A DNA stretch of 64,000 nucleotides, taken from the NCBI GenBank assembly GCA_009691445.1, contig SICL01000004.1, positions 30,708 through 94,707 on the forward strand. The letters are read 5' to 3'. The DNA comes from Candidatus Taenariivivens baikalensis (GTDB taxonomy: Bacteria > Omnitrophota > Omnitrophia > Omnitrophales > Aquincolibacteriaceae). Both the position numbers and the translations under genes were made by a program. This document shows, piece after piece, positions 9,904-56,162 of this stretch; position 1 is the first letter of the stretch; every line of letters starts with the position of its first letter. The notes beneath the pieces were generated by a model. The model saw only the letters and a list, made by a program, of their open reading frames with translations, made no database searches and had not been told where the DNA came from.

Positions 9904-10419
9904 TTAAACTTTAGCAGCTGCCGCACGATCTGTTTTTTTTGCCGACACTTTTAATTTTGCTGCTTTTGATAAGCCTTCTTCTTTTTTTAGTAACTCAGCT
10001 GTTTGGTTAGATGCACCGGCGGGCTTCTTGCCTTCTTTCAAAATAATAGAAAGATGGGACATCCTCTTTAGGATTTTATCCGCACGCCCCATCGACCGCT
10101 GCATAACGCGCTTCATCGAGGGGCCGCCGTCGGCGCGGATATCCGCGATATAAAGACGATTCTCATCCATACCAAGAACTTTAGCATTGGCCGCGGCACT
10201 CTTAAGAACTTTTTCCGTTATCCGTGCTCCTTTTTGCTTGATCACCGTCAAGGTCAAAAAGGCCTTTTGTACCGTCGCTCGGCGTACCGTGTTAATCACT
10301 CCACGAAGTTTCCGCGGACTAATTCTTAGATATTTCGCCACTGAACGCGCACAAAGCTCCACCGCCGGACGCGCCTCTGATTCTGTAACTAATTTTGATT
10401 TTTCTTTTTTCATAGTCAT
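9904..10419 (-). CDS. rplV: 50S ribosomal protein L22 with Lys/Ala-rich C-terminal extension
   Basis: The L22 core (YLRISPRKLRGVINTVR...) is present. The 171-aa length compares with a typical length of about 110 aa. Confidence 0.9.
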   Translation of the reverse strand: MTMKKEKSKLVTESEARPAVELCARSVAKYLRISPRKLRGVINTVRRATVQKAFLTLTVIKQKGARITEKVLKSAAANAKVLGMDENRLYIADIRADGGPSMKRVMQRSMGRADKILKRMSHLSIILKEGKKPAGASNQTAELLKKEEGLSKAAKLKVSAKKTDRAAAAKV

Positions 10420-44559: not shown

Positions 44560-44724
44560 GGAATAAGGTTTTAGTTTTTTCATGACGGCTGCTGTCCCAT
44601 CTGTTCCTGCCAATTGTTTTTTGCTAATAATAACCGCCCTCATCTCCCCATAGTAGCTGCTCTAAATGCACTAATTGCACTAAATTTGCAATTTGCTTCG
44701 AATGTGCTACCGTTTGATTAGCGT

Positions 44725-45324
44725 ATGAAACAATCCTACACCACTTCAGAAGCTGCGGAAATTTGCCGAGTCTCCCGCGGAACTATCCTGCGCTGGATCC
44801 GCGAGAAAAAATTAAAAGCCTCCGTCACTTTTGGTGGTCATCACCGCATTGAAGCCGTCGACCTTACCGGGGTATTAGAAAAACTGGGAATGAAACTGCC
44901 TGACAGTTTTTCGGCGTTTTCCCGCTGTTTACCCTCCCGGGTACTGCTTGTGGATGAGGAGGAGGAAATTGGAAAATTAGCCCGTCATTATTTACAAAAA
45001 TATTATCCTGCCTTGCAAATTGAAGAAGCCGCTGACAGTTTCAGTGCCGGCATTACCATCCAAAAATACCGCCCGGATCTTATTGTTCTGAATATCATGC
45101 CTCCCGGTATACAAGGCTATGATCTGTGTGAATCTATTCGAAATTTGTCGCGGGAATACAGGCCGGCCATTCTTGCCATCACGGCGCATGAAAACAACTG
45201 GGAACACCGCATCTTGGAAGCGGGAGCCGATCTGTGCCTAAAGAAACCGTTTCATGAGAACGATTTTATCAGTGCGATTAGAATTCTCTGGAATAGCACC
45301 TATAAAAATAAAAGGGCGGGATGA
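44725..45324 (+). CDS. HTH (excisionase/MerR-like) plus atypical receiver-domain regulator. The phospho-acceptor Asp is replaced by Asn.
   Basis: The N-terminal TSEAAEICRVSRGTILRWIREKKL helix-turn-helix is followed by a CheY-like fold with the VDEEEE acidic pocket, and with T and K conserved (AITAHE, LKKPF). The D57-equivalent position reads LIVLNIMPPG instead of LLDxMP. Confidence 0.75.
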   Translation: MKQSYTTSEAAEICRVSRGTILRWIREKKLKASVTFGGHHRIEAVDLTGVLEKLGMKLPDSFSAFSRCLPSRVLLVDEEEEIGKLARHYLQKYYPALQIEEAADSFSAGITIQKYRPDLIVLNIMPPGIQGYDLCESIRNLSREYRPAILAITAHENNWEHRILEAGADLCLKKPFHENDFISAIRILWNSTYKNKRAG

Positions 45325-45343: not shown

Positions 45344-48300
45344 ATGACCAACAATCCAAAGACATGTCATAAAAAAATAATGTGGAATAGAGGTGTTCTG
45401 AAGGACCGTTTTGCGCCGTTTCTTTTACTCTTGACCTGTTTAAGCCTGACAACAGTGGGTTTCGTCTTTCTCAGTCGCATGACCCATGAAAAAGCATCCC
45501 TTAAGTTTGAGTCGGAATGGCGGGATATCAAGGCCAGGATCCAGACCCATGTCAATATGTACACTGAACAGCTTTACGCAAACCGCGCGCTCTTTGCCGC
45601 AAGTAAGAGTGTTGAACGTAATGAGTGGGCGTCGTTTATAAACAACCAACGTCTCTCAAGTCAGTTCCCAGGAATTGTCGCAAGTGAATTTATTGAATCG
45701 GTTTCAAGCGACGCATTGGGGGACTTTATCCGCTCCGTCAAAGAGGATAAGAGCATCGATCCAGAAGGATATCCCACATTTGATGTCTTCCCCAAACATC
45801 AAACAAAAAATCATTATATTGTCACTTATGTTGAGCCTTTTACGTCTAATCGAAAAGTGTTTGGATATAACATGTCTTCAGACGGCATGCGTTCTGAGGT
45901 TTTGCAAAGAGCCGCTGAAACCGGAAAAGCTGTAGCCACAAGCAAGATTCACCTTATTCAAGATCCGTCCCATGCGGGCCTAATCATCGCTTTGCCCATC
46001 TATAAAAACAAACTCCCCGTTACCAACAAGACAGAGCGGTTAACTGCGCTTCAGGGGTTCGTCGCAAGCGTCATCGATACTTCTGCTTTTTTTAGACACG
46101 ACTTCATTCTGTCCACGGCTACCAACCAAATCGGTTTTGAGATTTTCGATTCTGCCCTGACAACCAAAGATCACCTCTTGTTTAATTTTGATCATTCGCT
46201 CAATTCCACAAATCAACACGACAAGGCGAAGTTCTCGGTCAACACGCCGATGGTGATCGGAAACCGAACATTCATCCTGAACTTCACAGCCTCACAAAAT
46301 TTCCGTCTGGGTGAGGGACAGGAGTGGTTTCCCTACTGGATTTTAGGCATCGGTATCCTCACCAGCTTTCTTTTTTTCACCCTTCTGCAAGTTTTAGCCT
46401 CGAGAGAATCCAAAGCCCTGCAATATGCTGACGAAAAGACGGAGGAAATTAAACTGCTGCTTGAGGCTTCAACGGACGGCATCTATGGAATTAATCTCGA
46501 AGGTCGGTTTACTTTTATGAATTCTGCCGCGCTTCAATTGCTGGGTTACGCTCTTGAGGAAGTTATCGGAAAAAATATTCATCACTTAGCTCATTTAAAA
46601 AAGTTAGACGGTGCCCCCTACCCCATCGAAGATTGCCCGATCTATCAAGCATTTCAATCTGGAATCTCCTGCCGAGTCGATACTGAGGTTTTGTGGCACA
46701 AAGACGGAACCTCCTTCCCCGTCGAATATTCTGCTTCACCGATGATTCGCCGGGGAAAGATATTAGGGTCATTGTGTACTTTTAGTGATATCACCGAGCG
46801 TAAAATAGCAGAGGAAAAATTAGCTCGAGCGGCAGCGGAAGCCGAAATTTTGCATCAAGCAGCTACTTTCGCCACACGGGATCTCACCTTTGATGTGGCC
46901 CTTAAAGAAACGCTTGCCTTAGTTTGTCAGGGTATCCATTGGCCCGTGGGACATGTCTGTAAATTGTCCCCCGATCACAAGGGCTTGGAATCCACCGATA
47001 TCTGGTATTTGAACGATCCAGAAAAGTACCACCCCTTCAAAAAATTGACGGAAAGTTTATATTTCCCTATCGGAACGGGGCTGCCCGGACGCATTGCCCA
47101 ATCTCGTGACATTGCTTGGATTGATAATGTGCAGAATGACCATAATTTCCCGCGAAAACAAGTTTGCGCCGAAGTCGGTATTACCTCTGCTTTTGCTTTT
47201 CCGATTACGATTGAAGGACGGGTCGTTGCGGTTTTAGAGTTCTTCATCCCCAAAGCACTAAAACCGGATGCGGACATTTTGAAACTCGTGGGCAATCTCT
47301 CAAAACAACTTCAAGTGGTTTTTGAGAAAAAAAGGGCGGCGGAAGCGGCGGAAGCGGTGGAAGCAAGCCGTCTCCGGCTGCAGGCTGTTTTGGATTCTGC
47401 CACAGAAGTTTCCATTATTACAACAGACACTCAAGGGCTTATCACCGTCTTTAACAAAGGAGCAGAAAAAATGCTGGGCTGGAAAGCAGAGGAAATGCTT
47501 TACCAGAAAACGCCGGAGGTTATTCACACTTTTGAGGAAGTCTCCGAGCGGGGAAAAGAAATGTCTCTCACTTCAGGGAAAACTGTGGAGGGATTTGAAG
47601 TTTTTGTGGCCAATGCGCGTGCAGGAAAGCCTCAGCTCAGGGAATGGACTTACGTCAAAAAAGACGGCACCCGTTTCCCCGTCAGTCTTTATATTACGGG
47701 AGTGTACAATGCCAGCCATGAGCTTTCTGGCTTTTTGGGAATCGCTACGGATATCACAAAAATTAAACAAGCTGAAATTCAGCTTCAAGAAGCGGCGCGT
47801 CAAGCATACGAAGCGTCGCGTATAAAATCTGATTTCTTAGCCACCATGAGCCATGAAATTCGTACGCCAATGAACGCCATTCTCGGAATGAGCGACTTAC
47901 TGACCGAGACGCCTTTGACGGCTGAACAAAAAGACTATCTGGCACGATTATCCCGCGCGGGCGAGACTCTTTTAAGCATTATTAATGACGTGCTTGACCT
48001 TTCAAAGATTGAAGCCCGCTCCATGGAGATTGAGCATATTGCATTTAATTTAAAAGAGCAGGTAGGAAAAACGGTCGACTTGCTGGCCTCTAAAGCTCAT
48101 CAAAAAGGGCTCGCGATTCATTGGCAGCTCGACCCAGAGATTCCGGCGATACTGCAGTCTGACCCAACCCGCTTGTGGCAAATCCTGCTGAATTTGATCA
48201 ACAATGCCATCAAGTTTACTGAGGAAGGTGAGATTTCCTTGTCGGTAAAACCGGTAAAAAAGGAGATTGAACATAAAGAGAAAAATGAAATTTGGCTTCA

Positions 48301-48988
48301 CTTTGCTCTGTCGGATACCGGAATTGGCATTCCGAGAGATAAAATAAACAAACTATTTAAGCCGTTCGCGCAGGCCGATTCATCAACGACGCGAAAATTC
48401 GGCGGTACCGGTTTGGGCTTAAATATCTGCAAACGGCTTGTGGAGCTGATGGGAGGAAAGATTTGGGCGGAAAGCGAGGAAGGAAAAGGTTCCTGTTTCC
48501 ATTTTATTCTCCCCTTTGGGAAATCAGATACGCTTCAGGAAAAGGCCCTGGAGACAGCTTCCGAAGACTCCCCCTTGGCATCAAGTCTAAAAATTCTTCT
48601 TGCGGATGACTCCGAGGACAATCAGAGTCTCATCCAGGCTTATTTGAAGAAATATCCTTATCAAATTGACATCGCAGAAAATGGAAAAATTGCCTGCGAC
48701 AAATCGGCCGCCACGGAGTACGATGTCATCTTGATGGATATGCAAATGCCGGAAATGGACGGCTATACCGCCTCTCGAATTATTCGCGAACGAGAAGCAA
48801 TCGGCGGCCCCAAACGGCATGTGCCGATTATTGCCCTGACAGCCAACGCATTAATTCAGGACGCTCAAAGATGTCTCGCCGCTGGCTGCGATCAGCATCT
48901 TTCGAAACCCATCAAAAAATCGATTTTGTTACAAACTTTGCAGTCGATATCTATAAAAAGGCTGCTTGAAAGGCGGGGACTAAAATGA
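45344..48988 (+). CDS. hybrid sensor histidine kinase: TM-CHASE-TM-PAS-GAF-PAS-HisKA-HATPase-REC
   Basis: A CHASE-like periplasmic region lies between two TM segments. It is followed by PAS-like, GAF-like and PAS-like segments, the H-box SHEIRTPMN, N/G-box ATPase motifs (NNAIKFT, GGTGLGL) and a C-terminal receiver (LLADDSEDN...DVILMDMQMPEMDG). The ATG at 45344 is preferred because the track's ORF runs into the upstream gene. Confidence 0.9.
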   Translation: MTNNPKTCHKKIMWNRGVLKDRFAPFLLLLTCLSLTTVGFVFLSRMTHEKASLKFESEWRDIKARIQTHVNMYTEQLYANRALFAASKSVERNEWASFINNQRLSSQFPGIVASEFIESVSSDALGDFIRSVKEDKSIDPEGYPTFDVFPKHQTKNHYIVTYVEPFTSNRKVFGYNMSSDGMRSEVLQRAAETGKAVATSKIHLIQDPSHAGLIIALPIYKNKLPVTNKTERLTALQGFVASVIDTSAFFRHDFILSTATNQIGFEIFDSALTTKDHLLFNFDHSLNSTNQHDKAKFSVNTPMVIGNRTFILNFTASQNFRLGEGQEWFPYWILGIGILTSFLFFTLLQVLASRESKALQYADEKTEEIKLLLEASTDGIYGINLEGRFTFMNSAALQLLGYALEEVIGKNIHHLAHLKKLDGAPYPIEDCPIYQAFQSGISCRVDTEVLWHKDGTSFPVEYSASPMIRRGKILGSLCTFSDITERKIAEEKLARAAAEAEILHQAATFATRDLTFDVALKETLALVCQGIHWPVGHVCKLSPDHKGLESTDIWYLNDPEKYHPFKKLTESLYFPIGTGLPGRIAQSRDIAWIDNVQNDHNFPRKQVCAEVGITSAFAFPITIEGRVVAVLEFFIPKALKPDADILKLVGNLSKQLQVVFEKKRAAEAAEAVEASRLRLQAVLDSATEVSIITTDTQGLITVFNKGAEKMLGWKAEEMLYQKTPEVIHTFEEVSERGKEMSLTSGKTVEGFEVFVANARAGKPQLREWTYVKKDGTRFPVSLYITGVYNASHELSGFLGIATDITKIKQAEIQLQEAARQAYEASRIKSDFLATMSHEIRTPMNAILGMSDLLTETPLTAEQKDYLARLSRAGETLLSIINDVLDLSKIEARSMEIEHIAFNLKEQVGKTVDLLASKAHQKGLAIHWQLDPEIPAILQSDPTRLWQILLNLINNAIKFTEEGEISLSVKPVKKEIEHKEKNEIWLHFALSDTGIGIPRDKINKLFKPFAQADSSTTRKFGGTGLGLNICKRLVELMGGKIWAESEEGKGSCFHFILPFGKSDTLQEKALETASEDSPLASSLKILLADDSEDNQSLIQAYLKKYPYQIDIAENGKIACDKSAATEYDVILMDMQMPEMDGYTASRIIREREAIGGPKRHVPIIALTANALIQDAQRCLAAGCDQHLSKPIKKSILLQTLQSISIKRLLERRGLK

Positions 48989-50332: not shown

Positions 50333-51730
50333 ATGAAAAACTTAATGCGCTTAAAACCAACCGCACCAGGTTTTCTTCTTTTAGTCCTTTCTCTTTTCGG
50401 GCCATCTTCCACCGCCTTTGCCGTTGGTTCGGGCGGTTTTGAAAATGCGACCTTCAGTTCAATTGCTATCTCTCAGAGTAATGCCGTCACCGCTCAAGGC
50501 GAAGAACCGGCGGCTATTTCCTATAACCCGGCAGGAATTGCTAATCTAAAAGGCCTGCAAGTGGAATCCAATATGGGTTTTATCAGCGTAATCACCCATA
50601 TCAGTAAGCAGAGCCAGGACGGAAAAACTCAGAGCTCCGGGACACTCGTGGAAGTTCCCACGGGCTATCTGACTTTCAATCCCGGAAAAGTCTTTAATGA
50701 CCGGCTGGTGCTAGGAATCGGGTCCGATTCGCCCTTTGGCCTCTCCAACAAGTGGGATTCAGCCAATCAAGCAGTCCGGTACACGGGCTACAAGAACTGG
50801 CTCAAAATGTATACCCTGAAACCCACGGTTGCCTTCAAATTCACGGATTGGTTGTCGGTTGGTGCCGGGGCCATGAATTACCGCGTTTTTAATTTTGGAT
50901 CAGTCCAAGCCTACCCTAACAATGCTATTGTTCCGGGATCTCCGGACGGCCAGCTTCGACTCAATATGAGCGGCTCTCATTGGGGTTGGCATTTCGGAGC
51001 GCGTGTGAAACCAGCTCCAAAGCATCAGTTTGGATTTTATTTCCGGAGTCCTGTTAAAATTCACATCCGAGGAAAAGTAAAGGTGGAACGCTCTTCCTTT
51101 GCGCCGGGAGGACGTTTTGAAAGCGGTGCTTATTCCAATCTTGATCTTCCGATGAATATGACCTGGGGCTATGCTTTCATGCCTAATCCCAAGAACACTA
51201 TTGAAGCAGATTTTGGCTACACACGCTGGTCTCAGCATAATCGTCTGGATGTGATTTCTACCGACAGCATCAGCACCTTCGATGACATGATTTTAGCCGC
51301 CATCAGTCTCAATGCCCATGATTATGACGACACCTTCTCGATTCATCTCGGAGGAAATCACAAGGTCAATGACCGCCTGACCTTGCGCGCGGGAACATTA
51401 TTTTATACGGCCGCGGTGCCCAAAAACCATCTTATCCCTGCGGTGCCGGACAGTAACAGGCTGGCTTTTTCTGCAGGTCTCAGCTACCAGATCAATCAAA
51501 TGATGGCCCTGGATGTTTGCTATATGAACATGATTGGCCTGCGCAGAGGCGTGAATAATGATATCGGCGAATCCCTCGGCGGATCTGGGGATGGAAAATA
51601 TACTTCTGATTATAATATTTTCCTGATCTCAATGAGGTTGATGTGGGAAGATCTGTTTGACAAGATGCTGCCTGGAAGTAAACCCTCAGAACCTGCTCAA
51701 AAGTTGGAAGTTTCCCCGGAAATAAAATAA
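50333..51730 (+). CDS. outer-membrane long-chain fatty acid/hydrophobic compound transporter, FadL/OmpP1/TodX family
   Basis: A signal peptide and the family-typical ISYNPAG motif near the N-terminus of a roughly 440-aa beta-barrel are present. Confidence 0.75.
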   Translation: MKNLMRLKPTAPGFLLLVLSLFGPSSTAFAVGSGGFENATFSSIAISQSNAVTAQGEEPAAISYNPAGIANLKGLQVESNMGFISVITHISKQSQDGKTQSSGTLVEVPTGYLTFNPGKVFNDRLVLGIGSDSPFGLSNKWDSANQAVRYTGYKNWLKMYTLKPTVAFKFTDWLSVGAGAMNYRVFNFGSVQAYPNNAIVPGSPDGQLRLNMSGSHWGWHFGARVKPAPKHQFGFYFRSPVKIHIRGKVKVERSSFAPGGRFESGAYSNLDLPMNMTWGYAFMPNPKNTIEADFGYTRWSQHNRLDVISTDSISTFDDMILAAISLNAHDYDDTFSIHLGGNHKVNDRLTLRAGTLFYTAAVPKNHLIPAVPDSNRLAFSAGLSYQINQMMALDVCYMNMIGLRRGVNNDIGESLGGSGDGKYTSDYNIFLISMRLMWEDLFDKMLPGSKPSEPAQKLEVSPEIK

Positions 51731-52236
51731 CGAAGCGTCGACTGCAGTTTTAGAATCGCCTCATCCTTCAAGCGGCTGATCGGATTTCCGTAATAACGTT
51801 TGATCGTCTTTTCAATATCTTCATCCGTGGCAAGAACGATTTCAATATCCCGAATGCCGGGCACGCACTCGAGATCTTTAAGAGAAGCGAGATTCATGGG
51901 ATCAGGGATAGCCACAAGCATCATCCCTTCCTGGATCGTAATCGGGATTAAACCATGTTCGACAGCGAACTGTTTTGAAACCGCTTGCAGGGCCTTGGCC
52001 TGAATCTTGATTTGAGATAAATCCACAAACTGTTTTCCAAACTGAATTGCCAGGGCCTGATATAAAATATTTTTCGAAATGACTCCGTTATCAATCAGTA
52101 TCTTTCCAAGAGGGCGCTTCTTCTCATCGTATTTCTGGAAATTTAACGCGTCTTCAAGATCCTGCCCCTGAACCCACCCCTGATGAAGCAAAATTTCTCC
52201 GATTCGTATGGGCTTCCGTTGTGTGGATATGATCAT
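51697..52236 (-). CDS. stand-alone MshEN-like domain protein (tandem c-di-GMP-binding motifs plus T2SSE_N fold), with no ATPase domain
   Basis: Two 24-aa copies of the RLGxxLLxxG(L/V/I)(L/V/I)xxxxLxxxLxxQ motif are present (RIGEILLHQGWVQGQDLEDALNFQ and PLGKILIDNGVISKNILYQALAIQ). They are followed by a GspE/PilB N-terminal-domain-like segment (LIPITIQEGMMLVAIPDPMN...IEIVLATDEDIEKTIKRYYG). Confidence 0.7.
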   Translation of the reverse strand: MIISTQRKPIRIGEILLHQGWVQGQDLEDALNFQKYDEKKRPLGKILIDNGVISKNILYQALAIQFGKQFVDLSQIKIQAKALQAVSKQFAVEHGLIPITIQEGMMLVAIPDPMNLASLKDLECVPGIRDIEIVLATDEDIEKTIKRYYGNPISRLKDEAILKLQSTLRYFISGETSNF

Positions 52237-53146: not shown

Positions 53147-54739
53147 TTAATCCTGGTGGATAATTCCGGCAATTCGGCCAGACCTGATTTGAACGCGTAC
53201 ATGGGCAGACTGTGCTTTGGATCCCGAACGCACAGTATGAATCACCGCATCAAACACCTCTGCGCTGGATCCTAAATCAATCGTCGGCGAGTGAACATCC
53301 GCTGAACTGAGGTTTTTACCTTGGGCATTAACGAGATCCACATGATACGTCGTTTGCTCTGTGGTCCAAAACTTGTGATCTATCGCCAGATCTTTAAAGC
53401 TAAGCAATTGGTTTTGTAATGAAAAATCTTCCAGGGGAGAGGATGTTTCAAACCCGTATTTCCCAATCAGATCCCGGCGCTCAATAAGCACCTTGGCAAC
53501 GGTTTCGCTGTCCTCGGGCTTGGAAAGTTTTCCGGTTTTCACAATCGCACGAATATTCTCATCCGAAAAGGACATGATAATCTTGGTTGCCCAAAGCGCA
53601 TCCGCACGGGTTAAGTCCTTAAACGCGTAATGCGGCAGCTGGGTTTTGTATTTCGCGGGATCAAAATAACGGTTGTCAAAATAACCGACTGCCGGAGAAA
53701 CACTCATCAGATTTTCTCCCGTATCTTTCCAACGTTTTTGCCAGGGCTTTTTCCAAAATCCAAAAGAAAAAATGGCTTTCCCGGTATCACCATAATCCAC
53801 AAAATACTCGTGAGTGGCCATGGGAGGCTTGGCGCCGTTCGAAGAACTGCCTAGTGCATCCTGAAAATCCATCAGGTAATGTTTCAAAACTGGCTTTCCA
53901 TTGTCACTCACCAGAAGATCCTGCGTATTACCTTCCCGCAGGTCATCCTCACCTAACCAAGAACCAAAGACACGCAAAGCCCGAAGCGCCCGTAAGCAAT
54001 CATGATTAATTTTATCTTGAGGATCAGCGCTGCGGCGGCCTTGAAATCGAAAAACCCCTTTGTCTTCTCCTGCCGGTGTTTTTCTCGCGGAAGCCCGGTA
54101 ACGGCCTTCTTCGTCCTGGGGAACAAAAGTAATATATTGTTCAAAACGTTCCTGCGTTAGTTTTTTCTGAAAGCCGGTGTCGTCATAGACAGTCGCAGAG
54201 GGGGCAATGGAGACCTGCTTCAAGGTGAAGGTCGCAATTGTATATTGAGGAACTGAATAGCCAATCGCGTGAAAAAAACGGCTGGCGATGGAATCGGCGG
54301 ATGTCTGAAGCTCCAACGAGTCTTCGGAATCGAATTTCAAAAAATAAGCTCCTCCCTTGGAATCCTTGATAAAAAATCCAGGATGAAGACCGTTGAATTT
54401 GCCTTGAGTGATCGTAAGTCCGTTGCTGAAATCAGGGCCTTCATTTTCCGCAGGACCTTTGGCCAGCTCCTCAGCACTGAGGGGCTTGCGGGCGTGACGA
54501 TTCACAAAGAACGCTGAATCCGGAACTTCATCATAGGCATTAACATCCAGCGAACGGAGTTTTTTCTTGGCAACAAAGCGGTAAAGCCGGTCCAAATGAA
54601 GAAAATTGGTGCCTTCGTAGTAGACGTTCTGATTAAAAAGATCGGCGAAAAAACTGGTCTCTTGTGTTTTGATCTCTTGCGCAAAGGCAGGCGCCGACAG
54701 CGGAAGCGTTGCTGCAATCATGACAATGGCTATTGTCAT
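53147..54739 (-). CDS. secreted hypothetical protein (530 aa with signal peptide)
   Basis: The ATG at 54739 gives MTIAIVMIAATLPLSAPAFAQE, a classical signal peptide. I do not recognise the family. The track's longer N-terminus reads through repeat 54761-54830. Confidence 0.6.
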   Translation of the reverse strand: MTIAIVMIAATLPLSAPAFAQEIKTQETSFFADLFNQNVYYEGTNFLHLDRLYRFVAKKKLRSLDVNAYDEVPDSAFFVNRHARKPLSAEELAKGPAENEGPDFSNGLTITQGKFNGLHPGFFIKDSKGGAYFLKFDSEDSLELQTSADSIASRFFHAIGYSVPQYTIATFTLKQVSIAPSATVYDDTGFQKKLTQERFEQYITFVPQDEEGRYRASARKTPAGEDKGVFRFQGRRSADPQDKINHDCLRALRALRVFGSWLGEDDLREGNTQDLLVSDNGKPVLKHYLMDFQDALGSSSNGAKPPMATHEYFVDYGDTGKAIFSFGFWKKPWQKRWKDTGENLMSVSPAVGYFDNRYFDPAKYKTQLPHYAFKDLTRADALWATKIIMSFSDENIRAIVKTGKLSKPEDSETVAKVLIERRDLIGKYGFETSSPLEDFSLQNQLLSFKDLAIDHKFWTTEQTTYHVDLVNAQGKNLSSADVHSPTIDLGSSAEVFDAVIHTVRSGSKAQSAHVRVQIRSGRIAGIIHQD

Positions 54740-54760
54740 CCTAAGGCCTCTTTGCCTTAC

Positions 54761-54830
54761 GTCATTGCGAGGGAGCGGAGCGACCGCGGCAATCTCAGCG
54801 CTGAGATTGCTTCGCTTCGCTCGCAATGAC
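54761..54830. repeat. Family-A 70-bp element, a near-identical reverse-orientation copy of 34356-34425
   Basis: GTCATTGCGAGGGAGCGGAGCGAcCGCGGCAATCTcAGCGCTGAgATTGCTTCGCTTCGCTCGCAATGAC aligns to the reverse complement of the atpH-atpA copy with about 4 mismatches. Confidence 0.85.
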
Positions 54831-54833
54831 GAC

Positions 54834-56162
54834 TTAAAAGGGTGTGCTGGTTTTAACATAATAATTGGTTCCTTCATCTCCATGGGCCATTTCCAACGAC
54901 AGCAACACAACGTTTGCCAAACTCGTGCGAATCCCAACTCCATACGATTCACGCAAATTCTTTGATTTCAACTTGTCAAAATTTTTGAAGACCTGCCCTG
55001 AATCCAGAAATACCACGGCGTCCGTCTTCCAATCTCTGTATTCCCAAAGATTGTACCGATACTCTACATTGAAAACGACCATGCTGCGGTCTGTAAACCG
55101 GTTGTAGCGATAGGCCCGAAGGGTTTCGCTCATCTGGTCCGACATCCCGTAACCTCCAAGCCGCGCCATTTGATGAAAGGGCACAGAGTGTCCGTTTGTT
55201 TCAGAGTTATGTTCGCCGTAAGCACGAATCCCAAGTACGCGGCGCGGAGTGCCCAGCTTAAAATAATGACTGAGTTCCATTTCGTATTTGAAAAACTCGG
55301 CATTGGAACTGTAAAGACCCTGGTTATAGCTGAAGCCAAACTTTTGAAGACCGCCGGTTGTGGAATTTCCAGCCTGATCACGGGTATCACGCTTCGCCTC
55401 AGTTTTATAAACTAAAAGTTCATCCCCGTGAAGCCCGGGAATGCCGGCGCTGCCATTGAAAATACCACTGTTATAACGGCCCATCGATCCATCACGACCA
55501 TCCGCGATGTGTACATTGCGGTAGCCAAATTTAAAATCCAGGGAATGCGCCACGTCCGGCTTGTACCCAAGAAGATATTGAAGATTGGTTTCTTCCCGTT
55601 TGTACACATAACCATCTCCCCGGCTGGAATGGGGACCGATGCCATAGAAATGTTCCTGGGGATGGGTTTCATATTGAAAATACCCCTGAGTCCGGAATCC
55701 GGTTCCGCCGATGCGCTCTACGCCAAGACGCGATCCAACGTTAAAATTATAATGGGACGCAAAATGGATCCAGCTATCCGCCACCAAATCCGGAAAACGT
55801 TCCTTCTGATGAAGGGCCCTGACAAAATCAACTTCAGCGCCTATATCCAGACGCGCCAAGCTAATCAAATTGAGTTTTGGTGTCAGACCTTTTTTGCCTA
55901 GCGTGTCATACACCCACTGGATCTTTTCCATCACGTGGTGTTTTTCCATATAGACCAAGCTCTTATCCACGGGGTAACGCAGGATTTCAAAGGGATATTC
56001 CGGAAAATGCAGCAGACTTCGTTCAAACAGAGTGGCCTGTTTAGGTTCGCTCTGAAGCGGAGCATATTTATCGTAAGAACTATCCTGGGCAAACAACGGG
56101 GGCGAAGCAAGAAGCAACACGGCTGTAAAACGGATGATGGATAAGAATGATTTTTGTTTCAT
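54834..56162 (-). CDS. Omp85 (BamA/TamA/TpsB superfamily) outer-membrane beta-barrel protein, short form
   Basis: The ATG at 56162 gives the signal peptide MKQKSFLSIIRFTAVLLLASPPLFAQD. The C-terminal barrel has alternating aromatic/hydrophobic strands, a Gly-rich motif, and a terminal ...YVKTSTPF ending in Phe, as in the bacterial surface antigen D15 domain. Confidence 0.65.
   Translation of the reverse strand: MKQKSFLSIIRFTAVLLLASPPLFAQDSSYDKYAPLQSEPKQATLFERSLLHFPEYPFEILRYPVDKSLVYMEKHHVMEKIQWVYDTLGKKGLTPKLNLISLARLDIGAEVDFVRALHQKERFPDLVADSWIHFASHYNFNVGSRLGVERIGGTGFRTQGYFQYETHPQEHFYGIGPHSSRGDGYVYKREETNLQYLLGYKPDVAHSLDFKFGYRNVHIADGRDGSMGRYNSGIFNGSAGIPGLHGDELLVYKTEAKRDTRDQAGNSTTGGLQKFGFSYNQGLYSSNAEFFKYEMELSHYFKLGTPRRVLGIRAYGEHNSETNGHSVPFHQMARLGGYGMSDQMSETLRAYRYNRFTDRSMVVFNVEYRYNLWEYRDWKTDAVVFLDSGQVFKNFDKLKSKNLRESYGVGIRTSLANVVLLSLEMAHGDEGTNYYVKTSTPF

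Follow-up and report, generated by a model that had tools for sequence, protein, structure and literature searches.

An asparagine occupies the phospho-acceptor position in the receiver domain of a putative DNA-binding regulator encoded by Candidatus Taenariivivens baikalensis (Omnitrophota), in a stretch of 64,000 nucleotides taken from contig SICL01000004.1 (assembly GCA_009691445.1, positions 30,708 to 94,707 of the forward strand) and referred to here as the window. The regulator combines an N-terminal excisionase-type helix-turn-helix (HTH) domain, HTH_17, with a C-terminal receiver (REC), and is, as an earlier note made from the sequence had it, the first gene of a three-gene cluster, in which a CHASE hybrid kinase and then a genuine single-domain receiver follow. 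The loss of the aspartate coincides with a missing Hpt step and with a free receiver at a position where the orthologues have none. The explanation favoured here, held with slightly more than even confidence, is that the terminal regulator of a phosphorelay has turned phosphorylation-independent, binding repeats and being controlled through its own level, and that the kinase charges the free receiver directly.

Asparagine at the phospho-acceptor position

The window regulator is identical in sequence to NCBI entry MSR77070.1, annotated as 'response regulator' in a metagenome-assembled genome (MAG) of Candidatus Omnitrophota bacterium. Both domains proposed in the earlier note were confirmed above their cut-offs by Pfam and NCBIfam. 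HTH_17 (PF12728) matches residues 5-48 (E 2.1e-11, 44.4 bits against a cut-off of 27), the NCBIfam model TIGR01764, 'excisionase family DNA-binding protein', matches residues 5-49 (37.4 bits against 28.8), and Response_reg (PF00072) covers residues 73-186 over its entire profile (1-111; E 7.8e-18, 65.1 bits against 30.2). The family conservation table shows that the HTH preserves both W24, invariant in the family, and the T35-x-G37-G38-H39-x-R41 motif. The AlphaFold2 model of the regulator, with a mean predicted local distance difference test score of 89.6 and a predicted template modelling (TM) score of 0.74, contains a receiver of five strands and five helices, and Foldseek comparison with solved canonical receivers gave target TM-scores of 0.85-0.92.

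The equivalent of CheY D57 in this receiver is Asn, with the active site otherwise retained; on this point of the earlier note phmmer, MAFFT, the CheY alignment and AlphaFold2 all agree. In phmmer comparisons with solved receivers, PDLIVLNIMPPG (LIVLN(123)IMPPG) aligns with PDLVVLDVMLPG (LVVLD-VMLPG) of BfmR/RstA and with PDVVMLDLMMVG (VVMLD-LMMVG) of 3cnb. Adding E. coli CheY to an alignment of 140 family sequences paired N123 with D57, D77/E78 with D12/D13, T153 with T87, K174-P175 with K109-P110, and C171 with Y106. In the AlphaFold2 model N123 is the final residue of beta3 (119-123), while beta1 ends at 76, beta4 at 153 and beta5 at 173, strand ends that put each conserved residue at the place required by the receiver fold. 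The receiver retains D77, E78, T153, A154 (T+1), K174, P175, P127 (D+4) and G131 (D+8). Compared with a canonical receiver, the fold, the acidic pair, the Thr and the Lys are thus present, and the Asp at the end of beta3 is absent. By the definitions in PMC4395418 and PMC12632262, the domain is an aspartate-less receiver, or pseudo-receiver.

Assemblies of the locus from the sequencing runs SRR8561390 and SRR8561391 are 100% identical over 9.2 and 5.7 kb, and the identical regulator protein is also encoded on two contigs of an ENA assembly. Since these sources agree, Asn123 is real in the sampled population and not a one-off assembly error, although every copy derives from one population. Given Asn123 and established receiver chemistry, canonical phosphorylation of an Asp is impossible, as the earlier note had argued; for example, DigR with the D53N substitution is not phosphorylated by its kinase (PMC3509222). 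The same note had called Asn at this site a rare but specific substitution, a description that does not stand, as about 4% of receivers are without the Asp, and among its replacements Asn ranks second in frequency (16%; PMC4395418). Pseudo-receivers make up about 6% of bacterial receivers (PMC12632262).

Relatives of the regulator were collected with HMMER, in an exhaustive search against 1.84 billion cluster representatives, which returned 1,956 matches at E<=1e-10; a word-indexed homologue search gave only two useful relatives. Most of the best 150 of the 1,956 representatives are around 190-220 amino acids long and align to the query from residue ~1 to ~185. This uniform layout marks HTH_17 followed by a receiver as standard for a large family, and the order of domains is therefore normal rather than unusual, contrary to what had been noted. 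DigR of Myxococcus was considered as a precedent for this order and rejected, as its receiver comes first (D53) and its HTH_Xre domain is C-terminal (PMC3509222). Searches of a paper library found no experimentally characterised HTH_17-receiver regulator.

The acceptor column in the MAFFT alignment of the 140 family representatives holds Asp in 137, Asn in two and Gly in one. A survey of orthologues for the Asn had been proposed, and it gave the opposite of conservation: Asp is present in all of the nearest relatives, namely P0006 (48% identity; a fragment from a 719-bp contig), P0005 (43%, the highest value for any full-length relative) and P0002 (42%). The only other Asn protein, P0016, stems from an 878-bp contig, is more degenerate, lacking also the first acidic residue, the Thr and the D+4 Pro, and falls into a different neighbour-joining clade, so that the two cases of Asn are independent and sporadic. 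Judging by the alignment, Asp is the ancestral and nearly invariant residue of the HTH_17-receiver family.

At least 80% of the family agree at 28 positions; the regulator deviates at five of these (K28, V50, E78, S105 and N123), and two of the three deviations in the receiver, E78 and N123, lie in the active site. Glu at the second acidic position is shared with five of the 139 other relatives (six of 140 with the window regulator itself). Receiver identity is 32-46% to the five nearest relatives (P0002, P0005, P0006, P0007 and P0008) and falls to 24% for distant members, values largely inside the range found among the relatives themselves. The HTH is the best conserved part, with 63% identity to P0002 versus 35% for the receiver. 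Accelerated decay of the receiver is not supported by these domain-wise identities, and the pattern of substitutions looks like a targeted or recent change rather than general decay. In pseudo-receivers the T+1 Ala, D+4 Pro, D+8 Gly, T and K-P features are frequently lost (PMC12632262).

Two cysteines are conserved in the family, C14 in the HTH (44764-44766, 81%) and C135 in receiver helix alpha3 (45127-45129, 90%). By analogy with other atypical regulators that are switched through Cys, a redox or metal role for them is conceivable.

Gene cluster, Hpt partners and upstream repeats

The regulator gene is followed, after a gap of 19-55 nucleotides, by the hybrid kinase and the 156-amino-acid receiver. 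The width of the gap varies with the kinase start, which is ambiguous: the gene callers use the ATG at 45380, and in-frame ATGs are also found at 45344 and 45254. From the ATG at 45254, the kinase frame would overlap the last 71 nucleotides of the regulator gene in another frame. The active site of the free receiver is complete (E10-D11, D68, T99, K120), and among solved structures it is most similar to single-domain partners of phytochrome kinases (Deinococcus 6xvu, Rcp1 and RcpA/B). The adjoining kinase, however, is of CHASE/PAS/GAF type without a phytochrome module.

The Asp-bearing relatives are found in a different setting. At the locus L001 (MAG GCA_964385615.1), a regulator with Asp (P0002), 42% identical to the window regulator, is directly followed by an Hpt gene (108 amino acids, HQLKG motif, Pfam Hpt) and a CHASE hybrid kinase that is 45% identical to the window kinase over the catalytic half. 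An Hpt gene also lies directly downstream of P0005, in the contexts L004-L006, where regulator (Asp) and Hpt precede a receiver-containing protein, and P0004 (Asp) adjoins a CHASE4 hybrid kinase with a fused Hpt. Consequently, an Hpt domain is encoded beside all three of the nearest Asp-bearing loci with a readable context, and a hybrid kinase was identified in two of the three. These relatives look like the last step of a phosphorelay running from hybrid kinase through Hpt to regulator, and since Hpt domains are encoded beside them, the receiver most likely docked ancestrally on an Hpt protein and not on the kinase.

In the window, Pfam detected no Hpt domain in the kinase, the gap between regulator and kinase is too short for an Hpt gene, and tblastn together with a scan for the HxxKG motif found no Hpt or further two-component gene in the 64 kb. 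The regulator therefore has the two-domain layout of ~200 amino acids typical of the family and an adjacent hybrid kinase, but neither Asp nor a nearby Hpt. What is new here is this contrast, with Hpt beside the nearest Asp-bearing relatives and an Rcp1-like free receiver in the window cluster instead.

Outside these loci the family was of less help. A three-sequence profile run against the genome collection found only the L001 contig and a distant cyanobacterial receiver, and a metagenome scan yielded 12 family members, 27-34% identical apart from one short match to the HTH only (59%); as their contexts are unrelated, they say nothing on the window module. In the metagenome loci L012-L017, regulators 31-34% identical to the query are repeatedly followed by a gene for an acetolactate-synthase-like (thiamine-diphosphate) enzyme, with no kinase, which suggests a different, possibly orphan, use of the HTH_17-receiver architecture. 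On the L001 contig (1-9872), two giant genes upstream of the regulator encode 16,683 and 2,651 residues, with no Pfam matches recorded.

Upstream of the regulator gene, the 165-nucleotide gap ends with ATGCACTAA TTGCACTAA ATTTGCAATTTGC. The first two elements form a tandem, ATGCACTAA/TTGCACTAA, at 44666-44683 with a period of nine nucleotides, then comes TTTGCAATTTGC; WTGCACTAA has no exact copy in the 64 kb apart from the two here. A -35-like TTGCAA (44687-44692) is separated by a 16-nucleotide spacer from TACCGT, which is preceded by TG. L001 carries AAATGCCCCAATTGCACCAAATTTGTAAATTG at the corresponding place (9925-10000 of that locus), and L023 carries GTTGCAA three times at a nine-nucleotide period (~100-190). 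All five aligned upstream regions have a -35-like element, TTGCAA or TTGTAA (CTGTAA in L008, TTGTTA in L023), with a spacing of 16-17 nucleotides, and four of the five have a TAnnnT -10 element (TATAGA in L008). The block is conserved even though the orthologous regulators are only 42-48% identical, and it is probably a conserved, autoregulated promoter with a direct-repeat operator beside the -35 element. Since a simple sigma-70 consensus scan called no promoter upstream of the regulator, this proposal rests on the cross-species alignment. A sigma-54 reading of TTGCAC-N5-TTGCA was considered and abandoned, because TG stands here in place of the -24 GG and L001 has TTGTA as its -12 element. 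Together with the intact conserved residues of the HTH, the conserved repeats give indirect support to sequence-specific DNA binding by HTH_17.

The window around the cluster is ordinary chromosome, with nuoL/M/N directly before the regulator gene and fusA, rpoB and rpoC also upstream. Downstream, the minus strand encodes a 179-amino-acid protein that is essentially a stand-alone MshEN domain (51697-52236), converging on the gene for a FadL/TodX-type outer-membrane transporter (50333-51730). MshEN is known elsewhere as a module that binds cyclic di-GMP. Also on the minus strand, between Prok-JAB and Omp85-family genes, lies an open reading frame (ORF) of 601 amino acids (53147-54952; 576 amino acids in the ENA record) with no Pfam match at E<=1e-5.

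Table 1 Features of the regulator and its gene cluster, in window coordinates.
Feature	Position	Strand	Basis or remark
Probable promoter/operator of the cluster	44658..44724	+	Repeats and cross-species alignment
Regulator gene, HTH_17-receiver, 199 amino acids	44725..45324	+	ORF list, Pfam, NCBIfam
Excisionase-type winged HTH (HTH_17), residues 5-48	44737..44868	+	Pfam and NCBIfam
Receiver-fold domain, residues 73-186, acceptor Asp absent	44941..45282	+	Pfam, alignments, AlphaFold2, Foldseek
Asn123 codon AAT, CheY D57 position	45091..45093	+	Single transition from GAT
Hybrid sensor histidine kinase, CHASE-PAS-GAF-PAS-HisKA-HATPase_c-REC	45380..48988	+	Pfam, NCBIfam, gene calls
Single-domain receiver, 156 amino acids	48985..49455	+	Pfam; start overlaps kinase stop by 4 nucleotides (ATGA)

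Explanations for the missing aspartate

In the favoured explanation, the relay would have been cut twice in this Omnitrophota lineage, once by a single G-to-A change that turned Asp into Asn and once by the absence of an Hpt gene from the cluster and the 64 kb around it. With the remaining receiver and the whole DNA-binding domain intact, the regulator would be a phosphorylation-independent DNA-binding protein. Its HTH_17 domains may bind the direct repeats of nine-nucleotide period at its own promoter, probably head-to-tail as small MerR/excisionase-like winged HTH proteins of the BldC/Xis type do on direct repeats (PMC5859096), and the Asn receiver could be a module of fixed state for oligomerisation or scaffolding. 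Control would then be exerted via the amount of protein, through autoregulation, and not via phosphotransfer, while the phosphoryl output of the kinase may pass directly from HisKA to the co-translated single-domain receiver. We infer phosphorylation independence, repeat binding, autoregulation and direct transfer from kinase to free receiver from the features above and from precedent: the characterised aspartate-less regulators act without phosphorylation (PMC4395418, PMC12632262), and in SgmT-DigR a hybrid kinase phosphorylates a separate regulator without Hpt (PMC3509222).

Several points weigh against this explanation. The active site is otherwise fully retained (T, K, T+1 Ala, D+4 Pro, D+8 Gly), which could equally mean a very recent change on which selection has yet to act. 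The 90%-identity cluster of the regulator has a single member, and there are no close relatives by which to date the substitution or gauge selection on it. The coverage is 64 kb of the genome, and an Hpt gene could lie elsewhere. Finally, the repeats are short and their 9-mer count alone is not significant (15 of 100 shuffles reach two copies); they draw their weight from adjacency and cross-species conservation.

The first rival takes the change from Asp to Asn as a recent degenerative or near-neutral lesion, leaving a regulator without a signal (Hpt lost or never acquired), a locked-off remnant of a module that is being lost. One transition suffices for such a lesion, Asn123 is a singleton absent from all nearest relatives, and all copies come from one population with DNA that is 100% identical. 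There is also no secondary drift (T, K, T+1, D+4 Pro and D+8 Gly are kept), unlike in pseudo-receivers generally (PMC12632262) and in P0016. However, the ORF is full-length with the N-terminus of the family, conservation is good in the HTH and the promoter repeats, neither the kinase nor the free receiver is damaged, and the pseudo-receiver has diverged no more than those of its relatives. The aspartate-less regulators studied so far are also functional (PMC4395418, PMC12632262), and a lesion of this kind appears unlikely.

A second rival gives the suggestion of the earlier note a specific form and supposes a switch of partners, with the Asn receiver heterodimerising with the phosphorylated 156-amino-acid receiver or docking on the kinase. 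A separate protein would thereby take over phospho-acceptance, and DNA binding by HTH_17 would still follow the kinase signal. The three genes adjoin one another, with an overlap of 4 nucleotides between kinase and free receiver, the Asn receiver retains its fold, T153 and K174, and the free receiver takes the place of Hpt in the cluster relative to the orthologues; precedents are the BldM-WhiI heterodimers and the CmrT-CmrR/CmrS models (PMC12632262). Yet Cys171 at the CheY Y106 position makes classical Y-T coupling unlikely (the same holds for several Asp-bearing relatives), the two receivers belong to different receiver subgroups, and the ancestral partner was probably Hpt, neither a kinase nor another receiver. 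Such a switch is thus given a lower chance than the lesion. Slightly more doubtful still is a 'split response regulator' caught soon after rewiring, in which, Hpt and the acceptor Asp having been lost, the HTH_17 pseudo-receiver would be switched by heterodimerising with the phosphorylated 156-amino-acid receiver, itself charged directly by the hybrid kinase. If true, phospho-acceptance and DNA binding would be divided between two polypeptides, and the cluster would be a natural case of a four-step phosphorelay collapsing to a circuit of kinase, single-domain receiver and pseudo-receiver. It would also offer a mechanism for a bacterial pseudo-receiver that is not an orphan; among the 20 described, only CmrT and FrzS are non-orphans (PMC12632262). 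Relative to these readings, the repeat-binding, level-controlled regulator remains the preferred one.

That the regulator is still phosphorylated, through deamidation of Asn123 to Asp or at another acceptor residue and with an Hpt encoded elsewhere in the genome, is very improbable, as a needed phosphorylation would select for GAT, the state in 137 of the 140 relatives, and the residue stands in a Leu-Asn-Ile context. An Ile after the Asn, rather than Gly or Ser, generally disfavours spontaneous deamidation, and the counterpart of Ser56, the alternative site in CheY D57N, is Leu122, directly before Asn123, so this alternative site is absent. In favour of phosphorylation, the receiver has the acidic pair that binds metal as well as T153 and K174, genome coverage is only 64 kb, and deamidation can quickly restore Asp in a receiver with Asn at the acceptor site (Maule et al., PMC4395418).

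Significance and known systems

Pseudo-receivers are well known as a kind, and the Asn in the window is a one-off that related proteins do not share. Its general significance is limited because it amounts to one sporadic change from Asp to Asn in an uncultured organism. Nevertheless, the switching of bacterial pseudo-receivers is largely unknown (PMC12632262), and nearly all that have been studied are orphans. The loci offer a natural contrast between regulator (Asp), Hpt and hybrid kinase on the one side and regulator (Asn), hybrid kinase and free receiver on the other, with promoter repeats common to both. Such an orthologue pair could suit asking what a kinase-linked pseudo-receiver does, the swap of Hpt for a free receiver being the key feature.

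Among known systems, RitR of Streptococcus pneumoniae resembles the window regulator in its PF00072 receiver fold, the Asn at the acceptor site (Asn53) and a fused DNA-binding domain (PMC4395418, PMC5965902, PMC12632262), and both proteins are expected to act without phosphorylation of an Asp. However, RitR is an orphan with an N-terminal receiver, a C-terminal OmpR-type domain, further active-site changes and a disulfide switch through a linker Cys, whereas the window regulator has its HTH_17 domain in front of the receiver, retains its active site otherwise and shares a cluster with a kinase and a true receiver. It does not match the RitR-type redox class, as its DNA-binding domain is HTH_17 and N-terminal and the Cys in its linker, C68, is unconserved among relatives.

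The closest likeness in architecture is to the HTH_17-REC family itself (P0002, P0005 and P0004), with which the window regulator shares layout, length, the W24 and T-x-GGH-x-R residues, the receiver core and CHASE-type hybrid kinases, and from which it differs in the residue that 137 of 140 members carry as Asp and in the Hpt domain or gene that accompanies the nearest ones. The best solved sequence relative, 3cnb, was named 'DNA-binding response regulator, merR family' by its depositors and, judged from the receiver fragment alone, may be a member of this family. For the DNA-binding part, BldC and Xis have a similar MerR/excisionase-like winged HTH and direct repeats of ~9-10-nucleotide period as the likely target (PMC5859096), but they have no receiver domain, and their binding mode is borrowed as an analogy only.

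As a system, the cluster can be set beside CmrRST of Clostridioides difficile, in which a DNA-binding pseudo-receiver protein is likewise encoded in an operon with a kinase and a phosphorylatable receiver (PMC12632262, PMC12548384). There, both regulators, CmrR and CmrT, are DNA binders of the OmpR family and CmrS is a non-hybrid kinase, whereas the window cluster combines a true receiver lacking an output domain with a CHASE hybrid kinase and an HTH_17 DNA-binding domain. Both systems share the question of how, if at all, the kinase controls the pseudo-receiver, and CmrRST provides the discussed precedent for regulation of a pseudo-receiver by binding to the kinase or to a partner receiver (PMC12632262), the route that the earlier note had suggested.

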